A DNA stretch of 50,441 nt from a virus. Lineage: Duplodnaviria > Caudoviricetes. The position numbers were made by a program, and so were the translations under genes. Positions 2,481 to 39,624 of the stretch are shown here, piece by piece; position 1 is the first letter of the stretch; every line of letters begins with the position of its first letter. Below the pieces are notes generated by a model. It searched no databases, had not been told where the DNA came from, and saw only the letters and a program-made list of their open reading frames with translations. The stretch spans positions 1 through 50,441 of the IMG/VR virus record IMGVR_UViG_3300042540_000801. One strand, written 5' to 3'.

Positions 2481-3371
2481 ATGAGATTGCAGCAGCTTTT
2501 TGATGACTTCTACCGGCCGCTTCGCCTGCGAGGGCGATCGGTCAATACCACGCGGTTGTATGGATGCACGATCCGGTCTTTCGCGAAGTGGCTCAAATAC
2601 GAGCCGACCATCGACGACCTGACTGATCTCGTGCTGTCGAGGTACTTGGAGCACCGGGCATCGGTCCGCAGCCCGTTCACCGCCGAGAAAGAGCGGTCGC
2701 AGTTGGTCGCGCTGTGGCGGTTTGCCTGCGACCGCGGGATCTTGAAGCAGCGGCCAGAGGTTCCGCCGTCACCGCTGCCCGAGCGGGCGCCGGTGGCGTG
2801 GTCGGTTGATGAGCTTCAGTCGCTCCTCAAGGCGGCGAGGGCGAGCCGTGGCTTTGTCGGTCCGGTGCCGATGGGCGTGTTCTTCCCGGCGTTGATTGCA
2901 GTCCTCTGGGAAACGGCGGAGCGGATCGGGGCTGTCATGCAGGCCCGATACACGGACTTCGACGGCGCGACGCTGCTTGTGCGGGCCGAGGCGAGGAAGG
3001 GCGGTAAGAGGGACCGCTTCTATCACTTGAGTCCCGAGACGTGTACGATGCTGGCTGAGGCTCACGCCCCGGGCAGGCCCGAGCTGCTGTACTGGCCGCG
3101 GTGCCAGACGAGCCTCTGGTCGAAGTTTGGCGACGTTGTGGCCCGTGCTGGCCTCGGCCACGGGAGGCGGCTGCGGTTCCATCAGCTACGGAGGACGGCG
3201 GCGAGTCATTTTGCTGCTGCTGGCGGTGATGCGGTGAAGCTGCTCGATCATTCGAGCCCGCGAATCACGCACCGCTGGTATCTGGATCGCCGTCTGACGG
3301 ACAACGGTCCTCGGCCGTGCGACCTTCTCCCGCGGATCGGACTATTGCCAGGAGGATCGCCCGCTCCCTGA
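2481..3371 (+). CDS. int: Tyrosine recombinase / phage integrase
   Basis: Catalytic R (ERIG), K (RKGGK), HQLRR, DH and terminal WY; GAGGAGG SD; only plus-strand gene. Confidence 0.9.
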   Translation: MRLQQLFDDFYRPLRLRGRSVNTTRLYGCTIRSFAKWLKYEPTIDDLTDLVLSRYLEHRASVRSPFTAEKERSQLVALWRFACDRGILKQRPEVPPSPLPERAPVAWSVDELQSLLKAARASRGFVGPVPMGVFFPALIAVLWETAERIGAVMQARYTDFDGATLLVRAEARKGGKRDRFYHLSPETCTMLAEAHAPGRPELLYWPRCQTSLWSKFGDVVARAGLGHGRRLRFHQLRRTAASHFAAAGGDAVKLLDHSSPRITHRWYLDRRLTDNGPRPCDLLPRIGLLPGGSPAP

Positions 3372-19052: not shown

Positions 19053-19295
19053 TCAGGGCGACGGCGGCGGGGGAGGAGGCGGCGAACTGGCGGTTGCTTC
19101 CTTCTCGGCGGCGACGGCCTGCCGGTAGGCTTCGTCGGGATCGACGCCGGCCAGGAGCAGGCGGGCCAGTTCCCGCATGCCGATGGAGCTTTTGAGGTCG
19201 CGGCGCCACTCGGCCAGGCCCTCCTCGCCAAACTTGACGACGCGGATGCCGGCCGCCGTGTCGACGTCTTGCTTGTCTTGTTCTTCTGGGGTCAT
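19053..19295 (-). CDS. Small hypothetical protein downstream of the effector polyprotein
   Basis: ATGA overlap with upstream stop; 80 aa. Confidence 0.6.
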   Translation of the reverse strand: MTPEEQDKQDVDTAAGIRVVKFGEEGLAEWRRDLKSSIGMRELARLLLAGVDPDEAYRQAVAAEKEATASSPPPPPPPSP

Positions 19296-21991
19296 GGATG
19301 CCACCCGATGTGCTCGAGGTCGACGAACAGCCGCGGCTTGCCGCTGATCCATCTCCATTCTTTCGATTTCAGGCGGAATTGCGAGCGGCGGGGGAGGAGG
19401 ACTTCGGCTTCGCTCTTGTGGGCGCTGATGCCTTGGATGTTGAGGCCGTACTTTGTCGTGATACGCATGGCGATGCCGGGGGCTTCTTTGTTGCCGGAAC
19501 TCCATGACTCGCCCATGTCGCGACGGGTGGAGCAGGACAGGTATCCCGTGTCCTGCCAGACGGCTCCGACAGCGAGCTTGTCGATCTGCGTGGCGACGCT
19601 GTGGCCGACGCCGCGGTAGAGGGTTTTCGTTTCGCTGTGCGCGGCGATGCGGGTGACGGCGTCGAGGGCGGCCACCTTGAGCGCGACGTGCTGCGGCATC
19701 TTGCCAAGTTCCGAGATGCTGCCGCCCGTGTTGGATTCGTACTGCCGCAATAGGTTGTTGATCTCTTTGTAGTGTGAGCCGGTGTACTGCTGGATGGCCT
19801 CCCTGGCGATTGGCATGGCCTTGATCGCGGCGGCTTGCACTTCGAGCACGGGCGGGTTGGGGACCGTGTGCTGCCAACTGTCTGGCGAGTTGGTTGGCAG
19901 CTTACCCGGTGGCGGCTTGCCGGGCGTGGCGCTGGCTCCGGCCTTCGTCGGCTCGGGCTGGACGGCGGGGGCGTCCTTGTCCGCGACGGGCTTGGGCGGC
20001 TCCTGCGGCTTGGGCGTGGACTTGGGTGCTTCCGGCGGCGGGTTGACCTTGTTGACGCCCGAGACGTTGGCGTTGGCGCCGGGCGGCGGAGGAGCGAGCA
20101 GGCCGGCGGCCATCGCCTTCTCGCCCGCGTAGATGCCGGGATCGTTCTTGAGCGCGGTCGGCGATCCGATGTTGTCGGGGTGGATGGGGTCGATGCTGTA
20201 CTGCGTGCAGAGGGCATTGAAGCTGTTGGGCGTTCCGGCGGTCTTCTCGCTGATGGCGTTCTTGAGCGTTTGCTGGGCGGCCGACTTGGCGGTCTTGGCG
20301 CTGGAGCCTTCGGTCTTGAACTTGGCGACCAGCACGCCGTAGAGCTTGGCGTGGGCGACCGTCATCATGAGGTCCTTGGGGTAGCCCTTCTTCTCCATCC
20401 AGGCACCGGCTTTCTTGCCGCTGCCGAGGGTGGCCGCGGCGTCGCCGGCGCCGCCCTTGGCGCAGGTGTTCGCCTCGCCGAAGCCGCCGGATCCCGTGCC
20501 GCAGTTGCGGGTCTCGAGCGATCGCTTGCTCTTCTTGGGATCGACCTGATCGGCGACAACCATGTAGACGCCTTCTTTGCTTTGCGTCACTGACACCACC
20601 TTGAAACTGGCTCGCCGAGTGATGTATTCCGGCTGGCTGGCTCCCTCGGAGATGTCGCGGGCGTCGACGAGCCGCGTGCGGATGATGATGCCAGTGCCGC
20701 CCGTGCCGGTTTCGTTGGGGTCCGCGTATTGCATGGCGGTCCCCTTGCTGCCGAAGGATGAGACGCCTTTGATGTTGAAGGACTCTTGCTTGATGAACGC
20801 GTCGGCGGCGTTGTTGTCGAGGATCATGCCGCGGTAGGCGAGGCCGTCGTATCGCGGCATCTTGGCGAGGGCCGATAGCAGCGCGGGGCTGGCCTTGCCT
20901 TGCTCGTCGAGTTCACGGTGCGGGGTGGCGTCGTTGGTCCAGTCCCCGATCGCGTTTTCTTCTTCGCGGGTCAGGGGGCCGGAAGCGGAAGGCCACCGGT
21001 CGCCGTCGTCGGTGCTGCCGTCGCCGCCGGCGCACTTGTTGCCCGGCTTGAATCCGCCGGCGCCGCTTCCGCAGTCGCGGGCCTCGGAGCGGGCGTCGCC
21101 GTTCTTCTTGGCCCAGGCCGCCATGTAGTCGAGCCGCGCCTTCATCGTGTCGCGGTGCTTGGCCGGGGTGGCGGCGAGGATGGCCTTGCGCCGCTTCTCA
21201 AGGCCGCCGATCTGCTTGGCGACGTCGGCATCCGAGAGCTTGCCGAAGATCGGCTTGCCTTGGTCGCTCGTCCGCATGGAGGTGATCTCGCCGACTTCCG
21301 GGCCGAACGCCTTGGGCTTGCCCTGCGCGCGGAAGTCGAGGGAGCCGCCATTGTCGATCCGCATGGGCGGGCGGCCGTCTGACGGGACGACGATGTTGTC
21401 GCGGGCCAGGCCGATGACGTCCCAGTTGGCGAGCAGGGCGTCGGCGGCGAAGTTTTCGCGGAGCGAGGCCGCGGCCTTCTCGAAGTCGCTGCCGCGGAGC
21501 TTGTCGAGGGTCGGGCCGGGGACATACTCGGTGACCTGCACCGGCTTACTGCCGGACTCGTCGAGGCGATGAGCCGGAACCGGGGCGCCGGCCGCGCGGT
21601 AGATGTCGTTGGCGGCCGACTCGCTGCGGACGTGCTCGGAGGAGTTGCCGCCCTTGATGACGAACTGGTTGCCGTTCTTGTCCTCGGCCAGCATCGCCCC
21701 GGTGGAGCCGCCGAGCCGCTTGGTGACCTTGAGCTCGCTGGCCGGCGGGATGTCGCCCTGTTTCTTGCCGCCGGGGGCATCGCCGCCGTCGCCGTCGCCG
21801 CCGGCCGCGCACTTGTTGCCGGGCTTGAAGCCGCCCGCTCCGCTGCCGCAGTCGCGGTAGGCGGCGAGCATGTCGCGGCGCTTGACCCGCTGCCGCTTCT
21901 TGAGGGCGTCGAGGATGTGCTGCGGCTTCTGCCAGCCGGGAGGAGCGAGCGAGGCTTCGGAGCCGACGAACTTGTCGAGGTTGGCGGTCAT
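19292..21991 (-). CDS. Multidomain effector: HipA/PI3K-like kinase, two VIP2-like ADP-ribosyltransferases and an unknown domain
   Basis: LGGSTGA..VIK..E..NWD..DN..IDNG; AYRG/SSFGS/QPE; LYRG/SCST/EAEVLL; three CGxGxGGF..xNxC tags. Confidence 0.8.
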   Translation of the reverse strand: MTANLDKFVGSEASLAPPGWQKPQHILDALKKRQRVKRRDMLAAYRDCGSGAGGFKPGNKCAAGGDGDGGDAPGGKKQGDIPPASELKVTKRLGGSTGAMLAEDKNGNQFVIKGGNSSEHVRSESAANDIYRAAGAPVPAHRLDESGSKPVQVTEYVPGPTLDKLRGSDFEKAAASLRENFAADALLANWDVIGLARDNIVVPSDGRPPMRIDNGGSLDFRAQGKPKAFGPEVGEITSMRTSDQGKPIFGKLSDADVAKQIGGLEKRRKAILAATPAKHRDTMKARLDYMAAWAKKNGDARSEARDCGSGAGGFKPGNKCAGGDGSTDDGDRWPSASGPLTREEENAIGDWTNDATPHRELDEQGKASPALLSALAKMPRYDGLAYRGMILDNNAADAFIKQESFNIKGVSSFGSKGTAMQYADPNETGTGGTGIIIRTRLVDARDISEGASQPEYITRRASFKVVSVTQSKEGVYMVVADQVDPKKSKRSLETRNCGTGSGGFGEANTCAKGGAGDAAATLGSGKKAGAWMEKKGYPKDLMMTVAHAKLYGVLVAKFKTEGSSAKTAKSAAQQTLKNAISEKTAGTPNSFNALCTQYSIDPIHPDNIGSPTALKNDPGIYAGEKAMAAGLLAPPPPGANANVSGVNKVNPPPEAPKSTPKPQEPPKPVADKDAPAVQPEPTKAGASATPGKPPPGKLPTNSPDSWQHTVPNPPVLEVQAAAIKAMPIAREAIQQYTGSHYKEINNLLRQYESNTGGSISELGKMPQHVALKVAALDAVTRIAAHSETKTLYRGVGHSVATQIDKLAVGAVWQDTGYLSCSTRRDMGESWSSGNKEAPGIAMRITTKYGLNIQGISAHKSEAEVLLPRRSQFRLKSKEWRWISGKPRLFVDLEHIGWHP

Positions 21992-24522
21992 GCGTTTTTG
22001 TAGTCCTCGTCTTCGTCCACGTAGAGGAACCACTTGGTGCTAGTCTTCACGGCCCGCGTGATCCGCATCTTCGACGGCGGGCGGATGACTTCGCTCTCGT
22101 CCAGGCTGTCGCGGTGGTTGACGTAGCCGACCCGCGGCGCGCGGGAGACGAGCACGACGCCCTTGTTGAACTCGCTGCCGCCGCTGAAACTGCCGGCCGT
22201 GCGGCGGGAGGTGGTCCAGCTGTTGACGCCGCTGTGCGACACGTAGCCGTCCTTGAGCAGGGCGTCGACGGCGTCGTCGTTGAGCTTGAGCCCGCGGTAG
22301 AGCTGCATGCAGCAGCCGAGCGTCGAGGCGGCCGTGCCGGCTTCGAGGACCTTGGTCATTTCGCGGATGGCGTCCTCGCGGGCCGATTCCCGCATCTGGT
22401 CGTATTCCTCTTCGATCTCTTGGGTGCGATCGGCGATCCACTCTTGCTTGACCTCTTCCTGCTCGTCTGGGGTGAGCGAATCCCACTTGTCGTTGTAGTA
22501 GTCGACTTTGTCGACGCCGTCCCACTCGCTTTCGAGCTCGTCGACTTTCTCGTTGATGAGTTGCCGCTCGGTCTCGGAGTCGATGGTCCCGTACTCCGTG
22601 CCATAGGAGTCGATGACGTCGCCGTCGGTGCCGCCGCCGCTGACGGACTCGGTGAAGTAGGCGTAGCCGTCGCCGGTGTAGGCGAGCAGCGCGCCTTCGT
22701 CGTCGGAGAGGTCGGCGTGGTCCTGCAGTTCCTTGGCGTCGCTGAAGTCGGTGACGAGCCCGCGGTCTTTGCCGTCGCCCTCGACTTCGTCGAGGTAGGT
22801 CTGGGCGTCGGTGACGCTCCGGTCGGTGACGACGATCTCGCCGCCGCCGCTCTGGACGGTCTTGGACTGCCCCTCTTCGTCGTCGCGGGCCGTGCCGGGG
22901 GAGGTCGGATCTGGCTCGCTGTCGTCGCCGCCGTCGCCGTCGTCCCCGGCGCACTTGTTGCCGGGCTTGAAGCCGCCGGCGCCAGTGCCGCAGTCGCGGG
23001 ATTCGGCGCGGGCGGCGGGTGGCGATTGGGGAGCCTGGGGCTCGCCAGGAGGGCCGCCCGGGCCGGGGCCTGGGTCATTTGTCGGGCCTTCCGGTGCGGC
23101 CCCAGGGGGCTCGCCAGGGGCTCCCGGGTGGGGCTGGGCGGGGGTGACGCCGGCCACGATGGCGGTGGCGGTGGTGCGAGGCATGGCTGGGAAGACGCTG
23201 CCGATGATCGACACGGCGGCGTCCGGGGCCACCGTCCCGGCGCCGACCTGTTCGAGGATGGCCAGCAGGCCGCCGACGTCGGCCGTGGGCTGGGCGGGCT
23301 GCTCGGCCGTGGGCTGCTCGGCGGCCTGCGGGTCGGGCTGCGGCTTGGACGCGTTGGTGAGCGTCTGCATGTTGAGCTGCACGAACCGCTCGTCGCCACC
23401 TTCGACGGGGTTGAGGTTCTCCCAGCCGCGGATCTCGTTCACGCTGGCGACGCCGAGCGAGGCGAGCGTGCTGTAGTAGCTCGCCCGGGCGCTGGCGTCG
23501 CCGCGGAGCATGCCCCGCGTGTCGAACTCGGCGAAGATGTTGTCGTCGGTGATGAGGTCGCGAGTGAACGCGGTTTCGAACCGGCGGAGCCAGCCGAGCA
23601 GGGTGTGCTGGATGAAGTCCAGGCTTTGCTGTTCGATGTTCGAGAATGACGAGCGCGTAAGGTCGCCCACGAGATGCGGCGGAACGCGAAAGATGCGGCA
23701 GATCTCTTCAGTCTGGAACCGGCGGCTTTCGAGGAACTGGCTCTCCTGATTCGAGGCGCCGCCGAGCTCGACGGGCTTGAGGCCGCCGCTGAGGACCGCC
23801 GTGCGGTTGGCCCGGTCGCTGCCGCGGTGCATCCGCTCCCAGTTGTCTCGGAGGGCGACGGCCGCCTGCTGGTCGAGCTCGTTGTCCGTGGTGAGGACGA
23901 AGCCGGGGCGGGCGCCGTTCGCGAAGAAGCTCGACCCGTGGATCTCGCAGGCGCGGGCCAGGGCGATGGCGTCGCGGGCCAGTTCGATCGGAACCATGCC
24001 CAGAACGCCGTCGTTGCTCAGCCACCGCAGGTGCATGATCTGGTCTTGCGTGTAGACCGTCTGCGACCCGTTCGGCTCGCGGTAGGTGTAGCGGAGCCGG
24101 CCGTTTTCCAGCCGCTCGCAGGCCATCCGCGAGGGGTGCAGGGGGATGAGGGCCGACACCGCGCCGCGCTTCCCGGCCCGGATTTCGTTGTAGGCGTTGC
24201 CGTGCAGGCCGAGGTGCAGCATCTGCTGCTCCCGCCACTCGAAGCTCGTCTGCCAATCGTTCGGGGCGACGTGGAGGACGTGGTAGAGCGGATGCTCGCG
24301 GGCGATCTCCTTGCCGCCGTCCGGCCGCCGGCGGTAGAGGTGGAGCGGGAGCCCGGCGACGCCCTCGGCCAGGACGCGGAGGCAGCCGAGGACCACGGTG
24401 CAGCGGAGGGCGGTGTCGGCGTTGACCCTGACCCCGGCCGCCGTGCGGCCCGAGAGGTCGTCATCCAAGGATCGGGTCTCGACGTCGCCGGGGAGCCAGA
24501 GGATGCGGTTGGGGGCGATCAT
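21988..24522 (-). CDS. HK97-family portal protein with C-terminal ADP-ribosyltransferase extension
   Basis: LHGNAY, FFANGARP, FRVPPHLVG, SNIEQQ, NEIR.WENL.P; then Pro linker, tag, LYRG/SWTTS/ESEVI. Confidence 0.9.
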   Translation of the reverse strand: MIAPNRILWLPGDVETRSLDDDLSGRTAAGVRVNADTALRCTVVLGCLRVLAEGVAGLPLHLYRRRPDGGKEIAREHPLYHVLHVAPNDWQTSFEWREQQMLHLGLHGNAYNEIRAGKRGAVSALIPLHPSRMACERLENGRLRYTYREPNGSQTVYTQDQIMHLRWLSNDGVLGMVPIELARDAIALARACEIHGSSFFANGARPGFVLTTDNELDQQAAVALRDNWERMHRGSDRANRTAVLSGGLKPVELGGASNQESQFLESRRFQTEEICRIFRVPPHLVGDLTRSSFSNIEQQSLDFIQHTLLGWLRRFETAFTRDLITDDNIFAEFDTRGMLRGDASARASYYSTLASLGVASVNEIRGWENLNPVEGGDERFVQLNMQTLTNASKPQPDPQAAEQPTAEQPAQPTADVGGLLAILEQVGAGTVAPDAAVSIIGSVFPAMPRTTATAIVAGVTPAQPHPGAPGEPPGAAPEGPTNDPGPGPGGPPGEPQAPQSPPAARAESRDCGTGAGGFKPGNKCAGDDGDGGDDSEPDPTSPGTARDDEEGQSKTVQSGGGEIVVTDRSVTDAQTYLDEVEGDGKDRGLVTDFSDAKELQDHADLSDDEGALLAYTGDGYAYFTESVSGGGTDGDVIDSYGTEYGTIDSETERQLINEKVDELESEWDGVDKVDYYNDKWDSLTPDEQEEVKQEWIADRTQEIEEEYDQMRESAREDAIREMTKVLEAGTAASTLGCCMQLYRGLKLNDDAVDALLKDGYVSHSGVNSWTTSRRTAGSFSGGSEFNKGVVLVSRAPRVGYVNHRDSLDESEVIRPPSKMRITRAVKTSTKWFLYVDEDEDYKNA

Positions 24523-36440: not shown

Positions 36441-36719
36441 TCACCGGTAGCGGATGACCGCGAACCACTGGCGACGGGCCGGCGAGTAGGCGACGCCTTC
36501 CTCGACGATGACCCGCTTGCCGAAGAAGCAGCAGTTCCGCCGCGCGGATTCGGGGGTGGAGCCGCAGCCGATCCCCTCGTACTGGCCGCACCCGGAGTGC
36601 ACGAGCACGCCGCGACGGGCGATGATCGTGGCGTGATCCTGGGCCGTGACCACGACAGTCGGGGCGGCTTCAACCGTGAAGCAGGCCAGGGCGACAAGGC
36701 AGGCGAGAAGCAAACGCAT
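36441..36719 (-). CDS. Small secreted protein, minimal CAP/SCP-like pattern
   Basis: Signal peptide; AQDHA..IA.RG.L.HSG...YEGIG; GGAGG SD. Confidence 0.65.
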   Translation of the reverse strand: MRLLLACLVALACFTVEAAPTVVVTAQDHATIIARRGVLVHSGCGQYEGIGCGSTPESARRNCCFFGKRVIVEEGVAYSPARRQWFAVIRYR

Positions 36720-36902
36720 GGCAATCCTCCGTGAACTCCCGGTATCCGCCGGGACTCACGCAGGATGGCGAGCGTGTCAAGCGTCCACGCCTACCACTCG
36801 CCGGCTTCGCCGCTTTTCGCGGGCCGTTTCACGCCGTTCGGCCGCGAAACGCAGGTCGGACCCGGATTAGGCTGCGAACTGGCCGCCTAATTCTGGTTCT
36901 GC

Positions 36903-37142
36903 TCAATCCAATGTGGCCGCGCCGACGTTGACGGAGCGCCCGTGCCATGCCTCGCGCTCGCGCATAGAACAGTTCCACGCAACAAGGCAGGAGGTGAGGT
37001 GCCTTGCAAGGATGAAGTCGGGCGTGCCGCTCTCGTTCTCCATGCTGTGCCTATTGAGAAGGTCGGCAAGTTCTTCTGTGAACCCTTTAGGTGCGCCAGC
37101 AGAACAAGCCGATGCAACAGACCGCTCGTCAGTGTCGCTCAT
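36903..37142 (-). CDS. Cassette 1 hypothetical protein
   Basis: GGAGG SD and ATG inside attC1; LLNRHSMENESGTPDFILA. Confidence 0.8.
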   Translation of the reverse strand: MSDTDERSVASACSAGAPKGFTEELADLLNRHSMENESGTPDFILARHLTSCLVAWNCSMREREAWHGRSVNVGAATLD

Positions 37143-37188
37143 AGTCGCCGCCTCCTTCGTTCGCGGCCGTTGATCTTCCGTGTTCTGC
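37099..37188 (+). other. attC site 1 (intact, 90 bp)
   Basis: R'' GCAGAAC, 5-nt spacer, L'' GAT[G]CAAC, bulged A, L' GTTGATC, 6-nt spacer, R' GTTCTGC. Confidence 0.85.
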
Positions 37189-37491
37189 CTACTTCAAAAG
37201 CCGCTCAAGAATCTCCTTGACCTTGTCCAAGTCCTCTTGCTTCTTGCGGTCGCGGCTTTCGGCAAACATCTGGTCAACAATCGCAACGGCTCGCGGTCGA
37301 GCAGCGGTCAGTTCCTCGTCTGTGACGATGCCTTTCTGGAGAAGGGCCACCAGTAGCGTGGCGTGGTTCGTGGCTTGCGCAGCACTCGCGTCGTTTGTTG
37401 ATGCCGCGAGTTCTTTGAACGCTTGAATAATCAACTCTCCAGGCAAGGCAGAACCACGCGATGGAATGGACTGCTCATTCTCGTTCGTCAT
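37189..37491 (-). CDS. Cassette 2 hypothetical protein
   Basis: AGGAG SD and ATG inside attC2; stop abuts R' of attC1. Confidence 0.8.
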   Translation of the reverse strand: MTNENEQSIPSRGSALPGELIIQAFKELAASTNDASAAQATNHATLLVALLQKGIVTDEELTAARPRAVAIVDQMFAESRDRKKQEDLDKVKEILERLLK

Positions 37492-37533
37492 GGTTGCTCC
37501 TGCGTTCGATGCCGCTGATCGCTGGCGTTCTCA
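37448..37533 (+). other. attC site 2 (86 bp, L boxes mismatched)
   Basis: GCAGAAC-cacgc-GATGGAAT ... GCTGATC-gctggc-GTTCTCA. Confidence 0.7.
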
Positions 37534-37965
37534 CTTCAGTCGCTCCAGCAGCGACCAGAGTATTGCGGAGTCTGCGCCAGCAACCCGATACATCGCGCGA
37601 AATATCACCTCCCGCTCCTCGTCGGTGAGCGCGGGGGCAAAATACAACGGTGCGAGCGGCAGTGGTCGGTTGGTTTCGCCAAAAAGGCACTCTCTTGCGA
37701 GACTCATAGCCTCGTCCTTCTGGTGGTCCGCGAATGCCTCATAGACCGACAGATCGCCCGGCGGGCCGGCAGTCACCGCCCACGCCACCGGCTTAGAACC
37801 AGCGGATGCAAGAGACGGCTCGTTTGCGTCTTGTGTGTTGTCAGTGTTCATGTCTCGCCGCTCCTCGCCGGTGAGCCGCAGGCGTGCGATCTCTGACTCC
37901 AGTTGCGCGATCTTGATGCGGTCGGCGGCAATCGCGTGCCGCAGCCATTCGGCGTCGTCAGCCAT
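37531..37965 (-). CDS. Cassette 3 hypothetical protein (internal start at 37851), apparently fused to an upstream fragment
   Basis: SD sequences at both 37965 and 37851 starts; SLASAGS encoded by attC3 left arm. Confidence 0.65.
   Translation of the reverse strand: MADDAEWLRHAIAADRIKIAQLESEIARLRLTGEERRDMNTDNTQDANEPSLASAGSKPVAWAVTAGPPGDLSVYEAFADHQKDEAMSLARECLFGETNRPLPLAPLYFAPALTDEEREVIFRAMYRVAGADSAILWSLLERLK
37793..37862 (+). other. attC site 3 (right arm truncated)
   Basis: TTAGAAC-cagcg-GATGCAAG-AGACGGC ... GCCGCTC, then no L'/R'. Confidence 0.6.
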
Positions 37966-38007
37966 TCGTGCCTCCTGCCCACGCGATGCAGCGGACCCGC
38001 GATGCCG

Positions 38008-38388
38008 TCACTCCTGGTCGAAGAGCCCGGCCGCGCTCGGGAGATCGGCGTCGTCGGCCGGACGGAGCCAGGCGGCGCCCTTCCAGAAGACGTGCCAGAC
38101 CTCGTGCAGCGCACGGCCGTACCAGTCGAAGACGCCGAAGGACGAGTCCACCTTGCTCTTGAAGTTGCCGTAGTCGATCTCGCTGCCGAGCATGGCGATG
38201 ATCTCCGCGAGCCGGGAGCGGCAGACGTGGATGCGGTAGGGGTAGTCGCGTTCCGGGGTTGTGTGGATGGGGACGCCGGGCTCCAGGGCGCGGAGGTGCG
38301 TGATGTCCCGCGAGCGGATGAAGAACGAATTGCGGTCGGCCGTGTCCTGCACGATCGAGTAGAAGCCGCGTTTGGTACAGAGCCACAT
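38008..38388 (-). CDS. Hypothetical protein
   Basis: MW..T..GFYSIV...DYPYR...IDY.NFK; GAGG SD. Confidence 0.8.
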   Translation of the reverse strand: MWLCTKRGFYSIVQDTADRNSFFIRSRDITHLRALEPGVPIHTTPERDYPYRIHVCRSRLAEIIAMLGSEIDYGNFKSKVDSSFGVFDWYGRALHEVWHVFWKGAAWLRPADDADLPSAAGLFDQE

Positions 38389-38399
38389 GGGTCACCTCG

Positions 38400-39509
38400 T
38401 CAGGCTGCGATGGGGGAAATGACGCAGAGCCGGTCCTCGCAGCGGAGGACGACATTCGACTCGGCGCTCTTTGCTTCGATGTGAACCATCTCGAGCGACT
38501 CGACGGTCTCGAGGAACTGGGCCACGTACTCGGGGGCGAGGGTGATCTGGCACGGCGTGCCGCACTCGCTGATGTCGCAGGCGACCTTCGACTCGCCGGC
38601 CTCGGGGCTCTTGCCCGTGAGGAGGATGCCTTCGCTGGTGATGGCGTAGGCCACGCCGCGGCTCGTCTGGCTGGTCGTGATCCCGGCCGCCCGGGTCGCG
38701 GCCAGGAGGTGGCCGGCCTGCACGCGGGTCGGGGCGTCCGACTCCTCGGGGATGGCCTTCCGCCAGGCTGGGAAGGCCGAGGCGAGGCGGGCCGCCGTGA
38801 GCGTCGTCGTGGCGTTGGTGGCGACGATGGAGGCCTTGCTGGAGGCGAGCTGCACCGCTTCGAAGCCGGCGGCGACGGCGATGGAGTGGATGGCGTTCGC
38901 CGCCCGCACCGTGATGAGCACCTCGCAGTCGTCGACGGCCTGGTCGATCTCGATGCGGTAGGCGTGGAGCCGCCGCCCGTCGGTGGCCACGAACGTGACC
39001 ACGCCGTCGGTGACGTTGATGAGCACGCCGCCGCCACGCTTGTCGGCCGCGGGAATGACGGTCTCCAGGCAGCGGGCGAGCTGGTCGCCGGGAACCCGAG
39101 CGACCGGCAGCAGGCGGCCGGGGGCGCTGGCGGGGAAGTCCGAGACGGCGCACGTCGGGAGGACCCACTTGCCGGTCTTGCTCTTCACGGTGCAAGCCGC
39201 CTTGCCCTGCTCGATGCGGATGTCGCCGTCGCGGTCGCAGGCCCCGGCGATGCGGGTGAGTTTGTCGCCGGGGAGGAGGACGGTGATGCCGGACTCTTCG
39301 GCTCCGTGGAGCTTGGTCTCGATGCGGAGCTCGCCGTCCGTGGCCGTCAGCATCCCGCCCGCGATGAGGACGTGCTGCATGGCTGGGATCGAGGTTCGGC
39401 CGGCGACCGCCGGGGCGACCATGGCGAGCGCCCGCTTGAGTTCAGTCACCTCGAGGTCGAGGCGTGTGCCAGGCGTTCCGCGGGATGCACCGTTTGCTGC
39501 AGCTGTCAT
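38400..39509 (-). CDS. dnaN: DNA polymerase III beta sliding clamp-like protein
   Basis: LTATDGE, DFP, VATDGRRL, FPAWRKAIP, VISPI; ~370 aa three-domain size. Confidence 0.85.
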   Translation of the reverse strand: MTAAANGASRGTPGTRLDLEVTELKRALAMVAPAVAGRTSIPAMQHVLIAGGMLTATDGELRIETKLHGAEESGITVLLPGDKLTRIAGACDRDGDIRIEQGKAACTVKSKTGKWVLPTCAVSDFPASAPGRLLPVARVPGDQLARCLETVIPAADKRGGGVLINVTDGVVTFVATDGRRLHAYRIEIDQAVDDCEVLITVRAANAIHSIAVAAGFEAVQLASSKASIVATNATTTLTAARLASAFPAWRKAIPEESDAPTRVQAGHLLAATRAAGITTSQTSRGVAYAITSEGILLTGKSPEAGESKVACDISECGTPCQITLAPEYVAQFLETVESLEMVHIEAKSAESNVVLRCEDRLCVISPIAA

Positions 39510-39624
39510 TCTCTCTCTCCTTGGTTGCGAGGTTCCGTCCAACGCAGATTCCAGCGACGAACGTGAGCAGGGTGAGAATCACGCCGATGCTCACGCAGAC
39601 GACTTGCTCGATGCTGATGCTCAT
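39442..39624 (-). CDS. Small membrane protein
   Basis: Single TM helix; ATGA overlap. Confidence 0.55.
   Translation of the reverse strand: MSISIEQVVCVSIGVILTLLTFVAGICVGRNLATKERENDSCSKRCIPRNAWHTPRPRGD

Follow-up and report, generated by a model that had tools for sequence, protein, structure and literature searches.

The stretch of DNA analysed here (the window, 50,441 nucleotides) represents a near-complete phage (50 kb, 97% complete) of lake-water origin, in which a low-GC island at 36.9-38.0 kb carries three small minus-strand early genes. In front of each gene stands a repeat of ~90 nt containing a Shine-Dalgarno (SD) sequence, an ATG and ~15 codons. These repeats are likely to be attC sites of a Pirellulales integron family, forming a phage-borne cluster of attC sites without an integrase (CALIN) whose coding polarity is reversed and whose sites act as the 5' leaders of the genes. 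Clusters of attC sites lacking an integrase are already known, and it is the reversed coding polarity that is new. The sites of such phage arrays share a family, a structure, a strand and a gene orientation, contain internal start codons and pair their R-box halves across genes, while the cluster in the window is set in the early/replication region of the phage.

The direct repeats occupy approximately positions 37095-37192, 37444-37537 and 37789-37870, with spacings of 349 and 345 nt, and were matched by nhmmer with E values of 2e-24, 2e-22 and 2e-18 (repeats 1, 2 and 3, respectively), the next-best match within the 50-kb window having an E value of 6.8. An Rfam scan of the window matched no family, a tRNA scan found none, and a blastn search of positions 36700-38000 against GenBank phages returned a sole match of 52 nt to Rhizobium phages, which lies inside gene A and is unrelated to the repeats. 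The features of the island and its borders are listed in Table 1.

Table 1. Sites, genes and flanking elements of the proposed reversed cassette array in the window.
Feature	Position	Strand	Basis or remark
attC site 1, intact	37099..37188	-	covariance model 85.4 bits, E 7.5e-19, full length
attC site 2, hybrid	37448..37533	-	covariance model 54.3 bits
attC site 3, truncated	37795..37869	-	model match 37800-37869, model positions 14-83 only
Fourth attC remnant (half-site), 3' arm only	37979..38009	-	31-nt exact match
Terminal R' half-site, GCAGAAC on minus	36896..36902	-	terminal-box search; directly after last gene's stop
Tail after last cassette	36864..36895	-	imperfect inverted repeat ending GCCTAAT; folds as hairpin
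Cassette gene A, 79 aa	36903..37142	-	ORF; first ~20 residues hairpin-coded
Cassette gene B, 100 aa	37189..37491	-	ORF; stop adjoins site 1 R' box
Cassette gene C, 106 aa from ATG 37851	37531..37851	-	ORF; frame open upstream to ATG 37965
GC-rich N-terminal ORF piece, ~38 codons, own SD	37866..37965	-	in-frame fusion to gene C

Read on the minus strand, site 1 opens with an R' box (GCAGAAC), a spacer and GAT followed by a 6-bp and a 4-bp stem, carries AAGGAGG and ATG inside its central loop, and closes with the returning stems, which bear a bulged T and C, followed by ATC, a spacer and R'' (GTTCTGC). Site 2 combines a 5' arm of the CAGCGG type with a 3' arm of the GAATGG type; these arms do not pair, and the MFE fold of the site contains no hairpin. 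Its 5' half is syntenic with another viral locus, L037, and the break lies in the loop. Site 3 is devoid of the R' box and 5' arm, the SD, ATG, 3' arm and R'' still being present. The fourth remnant corresponds to positions 51-82 of three type-4 elements, is broken exactly between G and TT of R'', and contains the stop of the upstream gene (38008-38388). The original prediction of three attC sites is supported as to type, but only repeat 1 is an intact hairpin, and the fourth half-site had been missed. Sites 2 and 3 have probably been kept for translation initiation rather than for recombination. At the other end of the array, the terminal R' half-site is complementary to R'' of repeat 1 (GTTCTGC on the minus strand, 37099-37105), and the tail that follows is a candidate attI-like or primary target site; inspection by eye of the attI regions beside bacterial intI genes did not establish a resemblance to this tail. 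Three model sites, a half-site and a terminal R' box place the array among CALINs, i.e., at least two attC sites with no nearby integron integrase (IntI). Of the intI and attI that would adjoin the array in a complete integron, no intI was found in the window, and attI is represented only by the candidate tail.

Single-sequence folds of both strands gave z values of -1.1 to -1.3 for repeat 1 and of ~0 for repeats 2 and 3, none of them significant; the case rests on family-level evidence, which is overwhelming. The extra bases of the hairpin lie on the plus-strand 5' arm, which is the minus-strand 3' arm, and the minus strand is therefore the 'bottom' strand according to the published geometry (PMC5027507). 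This bulge geometry agrees with the earlier assignment of the plus strand as the attC top strand, and the three minus-strand genes, recovered as ORFs, accordingly lie on the attC bottom strand, so that each site precedes its gene and acts as its 5' leader.

The three genes start and stop within or against the sites. An SD-like GGAG or AGGAG precedes each ATG (37142, 37491 and 37851), and the translations of genes A, B and C contain SVASACS, SIPSRGS and SLASAGS, i.e., the arm is translated in frame. The gene A stop (TCA, 36903-36905) adjoins the lone GTTCTGC at 36896-36902, the gene B stop (CTA, 37189-37191) adjoins GTTCTGC at 37182-37188, and the gene C stop (TCA, 37531-37533) overlaps GTTCT at 37527-37531. 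The starts inside attC, the translated arm and the stops abutting or overlapping the opposite core sites had all been read from this island beforehand, and are borne out by the sequence and its ORF translations. Residues 23-75 of gene A match phrog_18819 (E 2.4e-12), with no in-frame ATG, GTG or TTG alternative before residue 23, where the PHROG homology starts; its close relatives, from four loci, are of limited use. Gene B matches phrog_24582 weakly (E 3.9e-4). The body of gene C, ~215 nt from R'' (GTTCT), is near-identical to that of an L037 cassette (5 mismatches seen), which possesses another hairpin type, and the 3' end of gene C differs. Fusion of the GC-rich piece to gene C yields a 144-aa ORF with a shift in composition, and the junction falls inside the 5' arm of site 3.

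The repeat is not a local oddity, since its layout recurs in many related viral contigs, in keeping with the earlier proposal of a distinct cassette class. A pattern scan matched 68 viral stretches versus ~0.2 expected by our own estimate, and nhmmer identified 199 copies in these 68 stretches and the window, in arrays of up to 10 copies; among the 143 unique copies, 94 share a length of exactly 90 nt. The long helix is 93.6% paired, compared to 30-48% for slid controls, and both sides change in 9 of its 14 pairs. Compensatory cells number 364 as against 134±9.5 in shuffles, with none of 500 shuffles reaching 364. All 141 of 141 copies preserve the AAC and GTT triplets, and both spacers (6 and 5 nt) are unpaired. 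Counting from the 3' end, every copy has one unpaired base at position 16 and another at position 23, with C16/T23 as the bulge letters in 132 of the 141 phage copies and in 38 of the 42 bacterial ones. The extrahelical bases reported for attCaadA7 are G16/T23 on the bottom-strand L''/R'' arm (PMC5027507); the positions therefore agree, and position 16 is C here and G there. The R boxes of the phage copies are mostly xxAGAAC/GTTCTxx (113 and 120 of 141, respectively) and depart from the RYYYAAC/GTTRRRY consensus, while the AAC triplet alone is described as conserved among all attC sites (PMC5027507). Bacterial R boxes include GCCTAAC/GTTAGxx and GCCGAAC/GTTCGxx, and also GTTCT. GTTAG, which would put TAG in the phage reading frame, is present in 3 of 141 phage copies versus 6 of 42 bacterial copies.

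The bacterial copies form chromosomal arrays, with the family model matching 40 of 151 genomes of the order Pirellulales. True IntI (TIGR02249 above cut-off) was identified in 23 of these 151 genomes, and arrays and IntI co-occur (20/26 vs 20/125, Fisher p 2.9e-9). On nine contigs IntI is located within ~6 kb of an array, and in all nine the geometry is consistent with the model strand as the bottom strand. The phages themselves appear to lack such an enzyme: no integron integrase was found in the 97%-complete phage, whose sole tyrosine recombinase is Xer-like, located 34 kb away and without a TIGR02249 match, and tblastn with a Pirellulales IntI returned nothing in the 72 fetched phage loci or the window. 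A phage integrase was considered as a dedicated recombinase, Xer-like relatives (37-57% identity) being present in 6 of 6 records at 12-45 kb from the arrays; as these enzymes are distant from the arrays and usual in temperate phages, they constitute no evidence either way and the candidate was not retained. The shared site family suggests that the phages have Pirellulales hosts. The only phage-gene match among five Pirellulales genomes, to TerL at 35% identity in one MAG, is uninformative in this respect.

Textbook integron cassettes are promoterless, point toward their attC and depend on the Pc promoter of the platform. The bacterial units of the present family conform to this polarity, the longer ORF being on the top strand in 29 of 32 (with Pfam domains in 6 of 10 ORFs tested), whereas 64 of 91 phage units have their longer ORF on the bottom strand; an ORF on the attC top strand that ends at or in attC, as in canonical cassettes, is not a feature of the phage units. 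The polarity of the phage cassettes is thus opposite to that of the ordinary cassettes which bacteria carry with this attC family.

Evidence for integron-type exchange is provided by the R boxes. The 7 nt located 5' of AAC complement R'' of the element upstream of the gene at 4.97 of 7 positions (n=97), compared to 3.48 of 7 for the element's own R'' and 3.41 of 7 for random pairs. In the paired comparison the upstream-element R'' matched better in 65 cases and the element's own R'' in 13, with 13 ties. Bacterial arrays, used as a positive control, show the same R-box polarity (3.26 vs 1.75 of 4). Phages and bacteria alike show, in these R-box halves that pair across each gene, the crossover signature of integrons. 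Furthermore, two recently shared cassettes stop exactly after AGAAC of the next site, flanking homology at such after-AAC junctions is only ~10 nt, 35 of 43 phage arrays finish with a lone matching terminal R' box, and at least 11 of the 43 carry ATAAC-repeat tails behind it. A model in which a gene is followed by its own attC, with the start codon being donated to the next gene, was rejected because the shared cassettes end at the next R' box and not after the next hairpin.

Several observations nevertheless count against the integron reading, namely the absence of a phage IntI, the non-consensus R boxes, the inability of two of the three window sites to form a hairpin, the lack of linkage between hairpin type and gene family, the junctions at R'' or in the loop, and a host link drawn from the shared site family alone. 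In a rather unlikely alternative, the elements descend from attC but are no longer integrase substrates in phages, serving instead as conserved linkers for homologous swapping of gene bodies, much like the promoter-stem-loop repeats of T4-type phages, and as ready translation starts. In the window, repeat 2 combines two hairpin types exchanged in their shared loop, the identity between the gene C and L037 cassette bodies begins in the conserved 3' arm/R'' with differing hairpin types, and over longer evolutionary distance hairpin type is linked neither to gene family (12 of 54 pairs vs a background of 0.18) nor to the other neighbouring gene (7 of 55 vs 0.18); the window and the fetched loci, i.e., the phage DNA, also contain no IntI. 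Linkers for homologous recombination would, however, have no need of covarying stems, a 90-nt length and bulges, all of which are kept over 141 copies. R-box halves that pair across genes just as they do in true integron arrays, junctions directly after AAC despite so little flanking homology, and the lone R' box that terminates most arrays likewise speak against this alternative. Not all junctions fall at R', some being found at R'' or within the loop; cutting by an integrase at R' alone therefore does not explain the shuffling, and since hairpins and gene bodies reassort, homologous recombination also acts.

The phage copies differ further in that the site contains the start codon. Of 159 unique phage copies, 139 have an in-frame ATG within the site, 124 of these 139 possessing an SD, and in 60 of 95 cases the distance between the upstream stop and the next AAC is 1-13 nt. 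Cargo of the phage cassettes is phage-type and includes DUF551 (17 of 126), five DNA methyltransferase family matches and HNH. The original prediction of a portable initiation unit holds insofar as starts are found in the sites, but portability has to be qualified, given the lack of linkage between hairpin type and gene family over longer evolutionary distance and the decay of two of the three window sites.

Selection at the RNA level would be a second explanation for these arrangements, with an mRNA hairpin gating translation through SD sequestration or stop coupling, or marking a processing site, and with recombination being secondary. The folding strand is indeed the mRNA-sense strand, as judged from G.U cells on the coding strand (32 at one pair) and from RNA parameters, by which 88 of 141 copies fold more stably on the coding strand (mean -1.27 kcal/mol); upstream stops lie close to the R' box, and attC hairpins are reported to influence downstream translation (PMC11511950, PMC8876359). 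The SD lies within the stem in 41 of 111 copies, with an unpaired probability of 0.06, but in the open loop in the other 70, including site 1 of the window, with an unpaired probability of 0.69. This distribution also bears on the earlier suggestion that upstream translation may relieve RBS occlusion. Bacterial arrays, moreover, keep the structure with genes on the other strand and no start codon in the loop, and pairing of R boxes across genes is left unexplained, so that selection for an RNA function appears improbable. Selection of the N-terminal peptide itself, for example because it tags small phage proteins for targeting or cleavage, with the DNA repeat only reflecting it, is very improbable: S-x-A-S-x-G-S is near-invariant across 126 cassette proteins of unrelated families, but conservation extends to ~45 nt of non-coding sequence upstream of the ATG, the peptide codons covary with the upstream arm, bacterial copies share this arm without a reading frame on that strand, and the PHROG homology of gene A begins after the tag.

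Under the favoured explanation, a phage CALIN of reversed polarity, the variable loop of each site would supply SD and ATG, and the 3' arm, comprising the bulged T, the 6-bp stem, the bulged C, ATC, the spacer and R'', would be translated into a semi-conserved N-terminal tag, E-x-S-x-[AP]-S-x-[GC]-S, with the stop of each gene adjoining or overlapping the R' box of the site that follows. Cassettes may have been cut between AA and C of R', and perhaps still are, by an integron integrase that the host provides in trans; the excised circle would carry hairpin, TIR, ORF and stop. The array would be expressed by read-through from phage promoters, and homologous recombination between the conserved arms would also reshuffle hairpins and gene bodies. 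A more tentative possibility is that a lineage of planctomycete phages maintains an 'integrase-less integron', with attI-like entry and self-expressing cassettes, that borrows the host IntI in order to swap early/anti-restriction genes. If so, attC would have been recoded to combine the recombination hairpin with the ribosome-binding site and the opening 15-20 codons of its gene, in an array read opposite to every integron described in the literature examined.

As described for integron attC sites and CALINs (Cury et al. 2016, PMC4889954), the phage family displays an imperfect hairpin with R and L boxes, an unpaired spacer and invariant AAC/GTT, a pair of bulged bases on one arm, a single site for each cassette, R-box halves from neighbouring cassettes and no integrase nearby. 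Unlike known attC sites and CALINs, it has its genes on the bottom strand, the site before the gene, a loop with SD and ATG, a translated 3' arm and R'', AGAAC/GTTCT R boxes and, at position 16, C rather than the G of attCaadA7. Using IntegronFinder, 17 CALINs have been reported in isolated phages (Qi et al. 2023, PMC9892861), which likewise are attC clusters without an integrase and have DNA methyltransferases among their cargo. [quoted passage not shown]

Short helper ORFs of integron recombination sites are comparable in that an SD and start codon within the site aid cassette expression. Helper ORFs, however, are read from the top-strand mRNA and operate by translational coupling, whereas in the phage family the start of the cassette gene itself lies within the site, on the opposite strand, and the gene retains the site-coded residues as its N-terminus. 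Promoter-early stem-loop repeats in the hyperplastic regions of T4-type phages and start-associated sequences of cluster K mycobacteriophages are also short, conserved and located 5' of small early genes, and both have been proposed to serve expression and modular exchange. In contrast to the present sites, these repeats are without attC architecture, an R-box crossover signature or a counterpart beside host integron integrases.

With about 140-170 unique sites, the family constitutes an array class of opposite polarity in which the recombination site holds the translation start and is itself partly translated, indicating that attC sequence space can bear coding constraints without losing its structure. 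Such natural sites, in dual use as DNA/RNA structure and as protein-coding sequence, offer a means of probing the real needs of integron integrases. They also extend phage-borne attC clusters from the 17 reported CALINs to a large environmental family, and point to integron-type exchange together with homologous recombination as a source of hypervariable phage early regions.

In four lake/freshwater metagenome runs, contig depth was highest over the window repeats. Lake metagenome contigs diverge from the window after 37529/37531 and before 37979, at joints whose sides are short (20-30 nt) and which other repeat carriers may possibly account for; the loose contig ends before 37979 finish in CACAGAA or GCATAA.

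Three ~90-nt repeats, spaced by 349 and 345 nt, are present in the window, and ORFs of 79, 100 and 106 aa (genes A, B and C) on the minus strand begin within them, each with a motif resembling a Shine-Dalgarno (SD) sequence ahead of its start. The original prediction, i.e., that the cassette genes are inverted with their SD and ATG inside the repeats, was confirmed in the window, as was translation of the left arm in the same frame, the arm 3' of the ATG encoding SVASACS, SIPSRGS and SLASAGS. The stop codons of the three ORFs adjoin or overlap GTTCT(GC) boxes, i.e., the opposite core site, again as predicted. The match of gene A to a phage protein family begins at residue 23, and no alternative start codon exists between its ATG and that residue. 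Single-sequence folds of each window repeat were no better than those of shuffles, and the case would be weak from the window alone.

A degenerate pattern derived from the three window copies matched 68 stretches of viral contigs, some of them near-identical to one another, and a profile search of these stretches and the window returned 199 copies, arranged in tandem with at most ten per array and a spacing of 270–500 nt. Among the 143 unique copies in which both R boxes (R' at the 5' and R'' at the 3' end on the coding strand) were located, 94 measure exactly 90 nt and 139 measure 88–91 nt; 141 unique copies were aligned, two of 104–105 nt being left out. On the coding strand, the consensus opens with the R' box (xxAGAAC), followed after 6 nt of spacer by GAT and by stems of 6 bp and 4–5 bp; beyond a loop of ~40 nt the stems return, with a single T and a single C left unpaired, and ATC leads through 5 nt of spacer to the R'' box (GTTCTxx). 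Pairing in the long helix amounts to 93.6%, with only 30–48% in a slid-partner control, and both sides vary in nine of its 14 pairs; 364 compensatory cells were counted versus 134±9.5 in column shuffles, none of 500 of which reached this value. At one pair there are 32 G.U cells, possible on the coding strand only.

According to PMC5027507, the attC bottom strand carries AAC in the 5' R' box, is cleaved between A and C, has extrahelical bases near L'' (G16 and T23 in attCaadA7) and is the strand richer in G:T pairs. Compared with attCaadA7 as described there, the phage sites have their unpaired bases at exactly the same positions, 16 and 23 counted from the 3' end; the bulge letters are C16/T23 in 132 of 141 copies. 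The sole bacterial match of the pattern scan was a Pirellulales MAG, which encodes a true integron integrase (TIGR02249; 436 bits versus a cut-off of 265, passed by none of 14 control genomes) and contains 12 model matches, mostly at contig ends. The covariance model built from the phage copies matched 40 of 151 genomes sampled from the Pirellulales order, the largest array comprising 24 scored copies, and IntI exceeded the cut-off in 23 of the 151; the element was present in 20 of 26 IntI-positive genomes (E<=1e-60) versus 20 of 125 others (Fisher p 2.9e-9). The stems and bulges of the phage sites are retained in the bacterial copies, 38 of 42 having C16/T23, and the bacterial R boxes are frequently textbook, e.g., GCCTAAC.

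Nine contigs carry an array within ~6 kb of intI. The array lies upstream on the intI strand in six, as in classical integrons if the model strand corresponds to the bottom strand, and is convergent with intI in three, an arrangement known as the 'inverted integrase' layout; none of the nine shows a layout in which the model strand would have to be the top one. Both layouts coexist in one bacterial order and even in one genome (G134), and two intI copies contain in-frame stops.

Every R' box in an integron array has its outer half supplied by the neighbouring cassette. The 7 nt on the 5' side of AAC in the phage arrays were found to complement the R'' of the element across the upstream gene at a mean of 4.97 of 7 positions (n=97), versus 3.48 for the element's own R'' (n=147), 3.47 for the downstream R'' and 3.41 at random, and a paired comparison favoured the element across the upstream gene by 65 to 13, with 13 ties. 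Bacterial arrays have the same R-box polarity (3.26 versus 1.75 of 4). Furthermore, in two pairs of near-identical cassettes from different arrays, identity ends exactly after the AGAAC of the next site, and 35 of 43 arrays possess a lone terminal R' box, with at most one mismatch to the last R'' in nine.

Of 32 units in bacterial arrays, 29 have their longer ORF on the top strand and none has it starting inside a site; six of ten such top-strand ORFs encode Pfam domains above cut-offs, and these units are ordinary cassettes. Phage arrays show the reverse, the bottom strand carrying the longer ORF in 64 of 91 units, a count affected by spurious antisense ORFs inflated by high GC. The start seen in the window recurs in most of the family, with an in-frame ATG 19–55 nt before R'' in 139 of 159 unique phage sites and an SD-like motif in 124 of those 139. 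Stops fall 1–13 nt from the next AAC in 60 of 95 phage cases, most commonly as TGAGAAC, and GTTAG in R'', which places TAG in the reading frame, occurs in 3 of 141 phage versus 6 of 42 bacterial copies. The site-coded peptide (S, A, S, G, S) is near invariant in 126 proteins of unrelated families, and the cassette products (median 101 aa) include DUF551 (17), HNH nucleases, and C5, MT-A70, N6/N4 and Dam-type methyltransferases. The tag can also attach to enzymes of ordinary size, as indicated by a full-length, 359-aa C5 cytosine methyltransferase with the site-coded tag at its N-terminus. Six phage arrays (L020, L033, L035, L052, L053 and L054) also contain short, near loop-less attC sites of ~55 nt; in these, the bottom-strand gene has its SD and ATG immediately 3' of R''. 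Bottom-strand coding is thus the rule, the loop start being one of two designs.

Judged from its sequence, the window element is an attC CALIN, i.e., an attC cluster without an integrase, in which coding polarity is reversed and the site itself contains the translation start, and such reversed-polarity CALINs are widespread in lake-water viral contigs. The core of the earlier interpretation (attC sites, bottom-strand genes and a start within the site) is supported; its mechanistic extras are unproven. Published reports describe integrase-less attC clusters in bacteria (PMC4889954), 17 phage attC clusters without integrase, with IntI1 recombining five of six sites tested (PMC9892861), and translation signals within attI1 (ORF-11) as well as attC sites that contain small ORFs (PMC8876359, PMC11511950). 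A full-text literature search returned no description of bottom-strand cassette genes starting inside their own attC, nor of planctomycete-phage arrays, although supplementary tables might list such sites uncommented.

Because the genes lie on the bottom strand, their mRNA bears the same hairpin. Of 141 copies folded with RNA energy parameters, 88 are more stable on the coding strand than on the complementary one (mean -1.27 kcal/mol). Among 111 copies, 41 have the SD within the stem, at an unpaired probability of 0.06, and 70 have it in the loop (0.69); at site 1 of the window the SD is half open, with the AUG open. As modelled, relief of SD occlusion by upstream translation is possible at a minority of sites only.

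Part of the evidence lies outside a pure integrase model. Gene C and a cassette of viral contig L037 differ by 5 mismatches over ~215 nt from R'', the L037 copy having a different hairpin type (sequence class of the arms), and the 3' end of gene C is replaced relative to that cassette. Site 2 combines 5' and 3' arms from two hairpin types, with the switch in the shared loop, and is unable to fold; site 3, now without a 5' arm, is joined to a GC-rich ORF start. The fourth remnant (37979-38009), a lone 3' arm, belongs to the same evidence. Among 230 homologous gene-body pairs, the own hairpin type was common to 12 of 54, not above chance (0.18), and the next hairpin type likewise to only 7 of 55, at chance level. 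These breaks in arms and loops, together with the lack of linkage between hairpin and gene, indicate that exchange within conserved arms, most simply homologous recombination, acts beside any integrase. Viewed as recombination sites, the window array shows partial decay.

Features of the window and of related arrays
Feature	Location	Remarks
Xer-like tyrosine integrase	2481-3371	only one in window
913-aa protein adjoining portal gene	19292-22033 (-)	C-terminal ADP-ribosyltransferase domain, PF03496, E 3.7e-14
Terminal R' box of window array	36896-36902	
Fourth attC remnant, 3' arm only	37979-38009	identical over 31 nt to three type-4 elements; break falls precisely at G|TT in R''
Gene with stop inside fourth remnant	38008-38388	SD and ATG (37965) directly after the remnant
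Phage DNA polymerase III beta-clamp homologue	38400-39542 (-)	phrog_947, E 1e-45; just upstream of cassette island
Tagged C5 cytosine methyltransferase	L054:3222-4298	
Array tails	window 36864-36895; L004, L009, L012, L013, L021, L024, L032, L046, L050, L067 and others	
Classical intI layout	G134:C155, G057:C86, G073:C20, G100:C34, G071:C1, G126:C3	
Convergent intI layout	G020:C82, G134:C230, G033:C925	

The terminal R' box of many phage arrays is followed by a semi-conserved site starting CAGTGTTT.. or CACATTTAT.., which contains an inverted repeat and two or more ATAAC/ATAGC boxes and is reminiscent of attI integrase-binding repeats. The intI-proximal regions of bacterial stretches L104, L119 and L081 likewise present xxCTAAC, then repeat-rich sequence.

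The window, an entire IMG/VR virus record (50,441 bp; estimated completeness 97%; GC 66%), has almost all genes on the minus strand, encoding, among others, a portal, large terminase, prohead protease, tape measure, C5 methylase, sliding-clamp homologue, UvrD-type helicase and primase-polymerase, and the cassette island, with a GC content of 57–60% versus 66–73% in its flanks, is located in the replication/early region. The 913-aa protein possibly associates with the head, its domain being of toxin type. In three of four lake metagenome runs, summed contig depth over repeat 2 (37472-37538) was 10–40x the depth over the cassette bodies; in run X4, summed depth was 13 over repeat 2 versus 2–3.5 over the cassette bodies, i.e., about fivefold. 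The repeat element is thus far more abundant in these lakes than the window phage.
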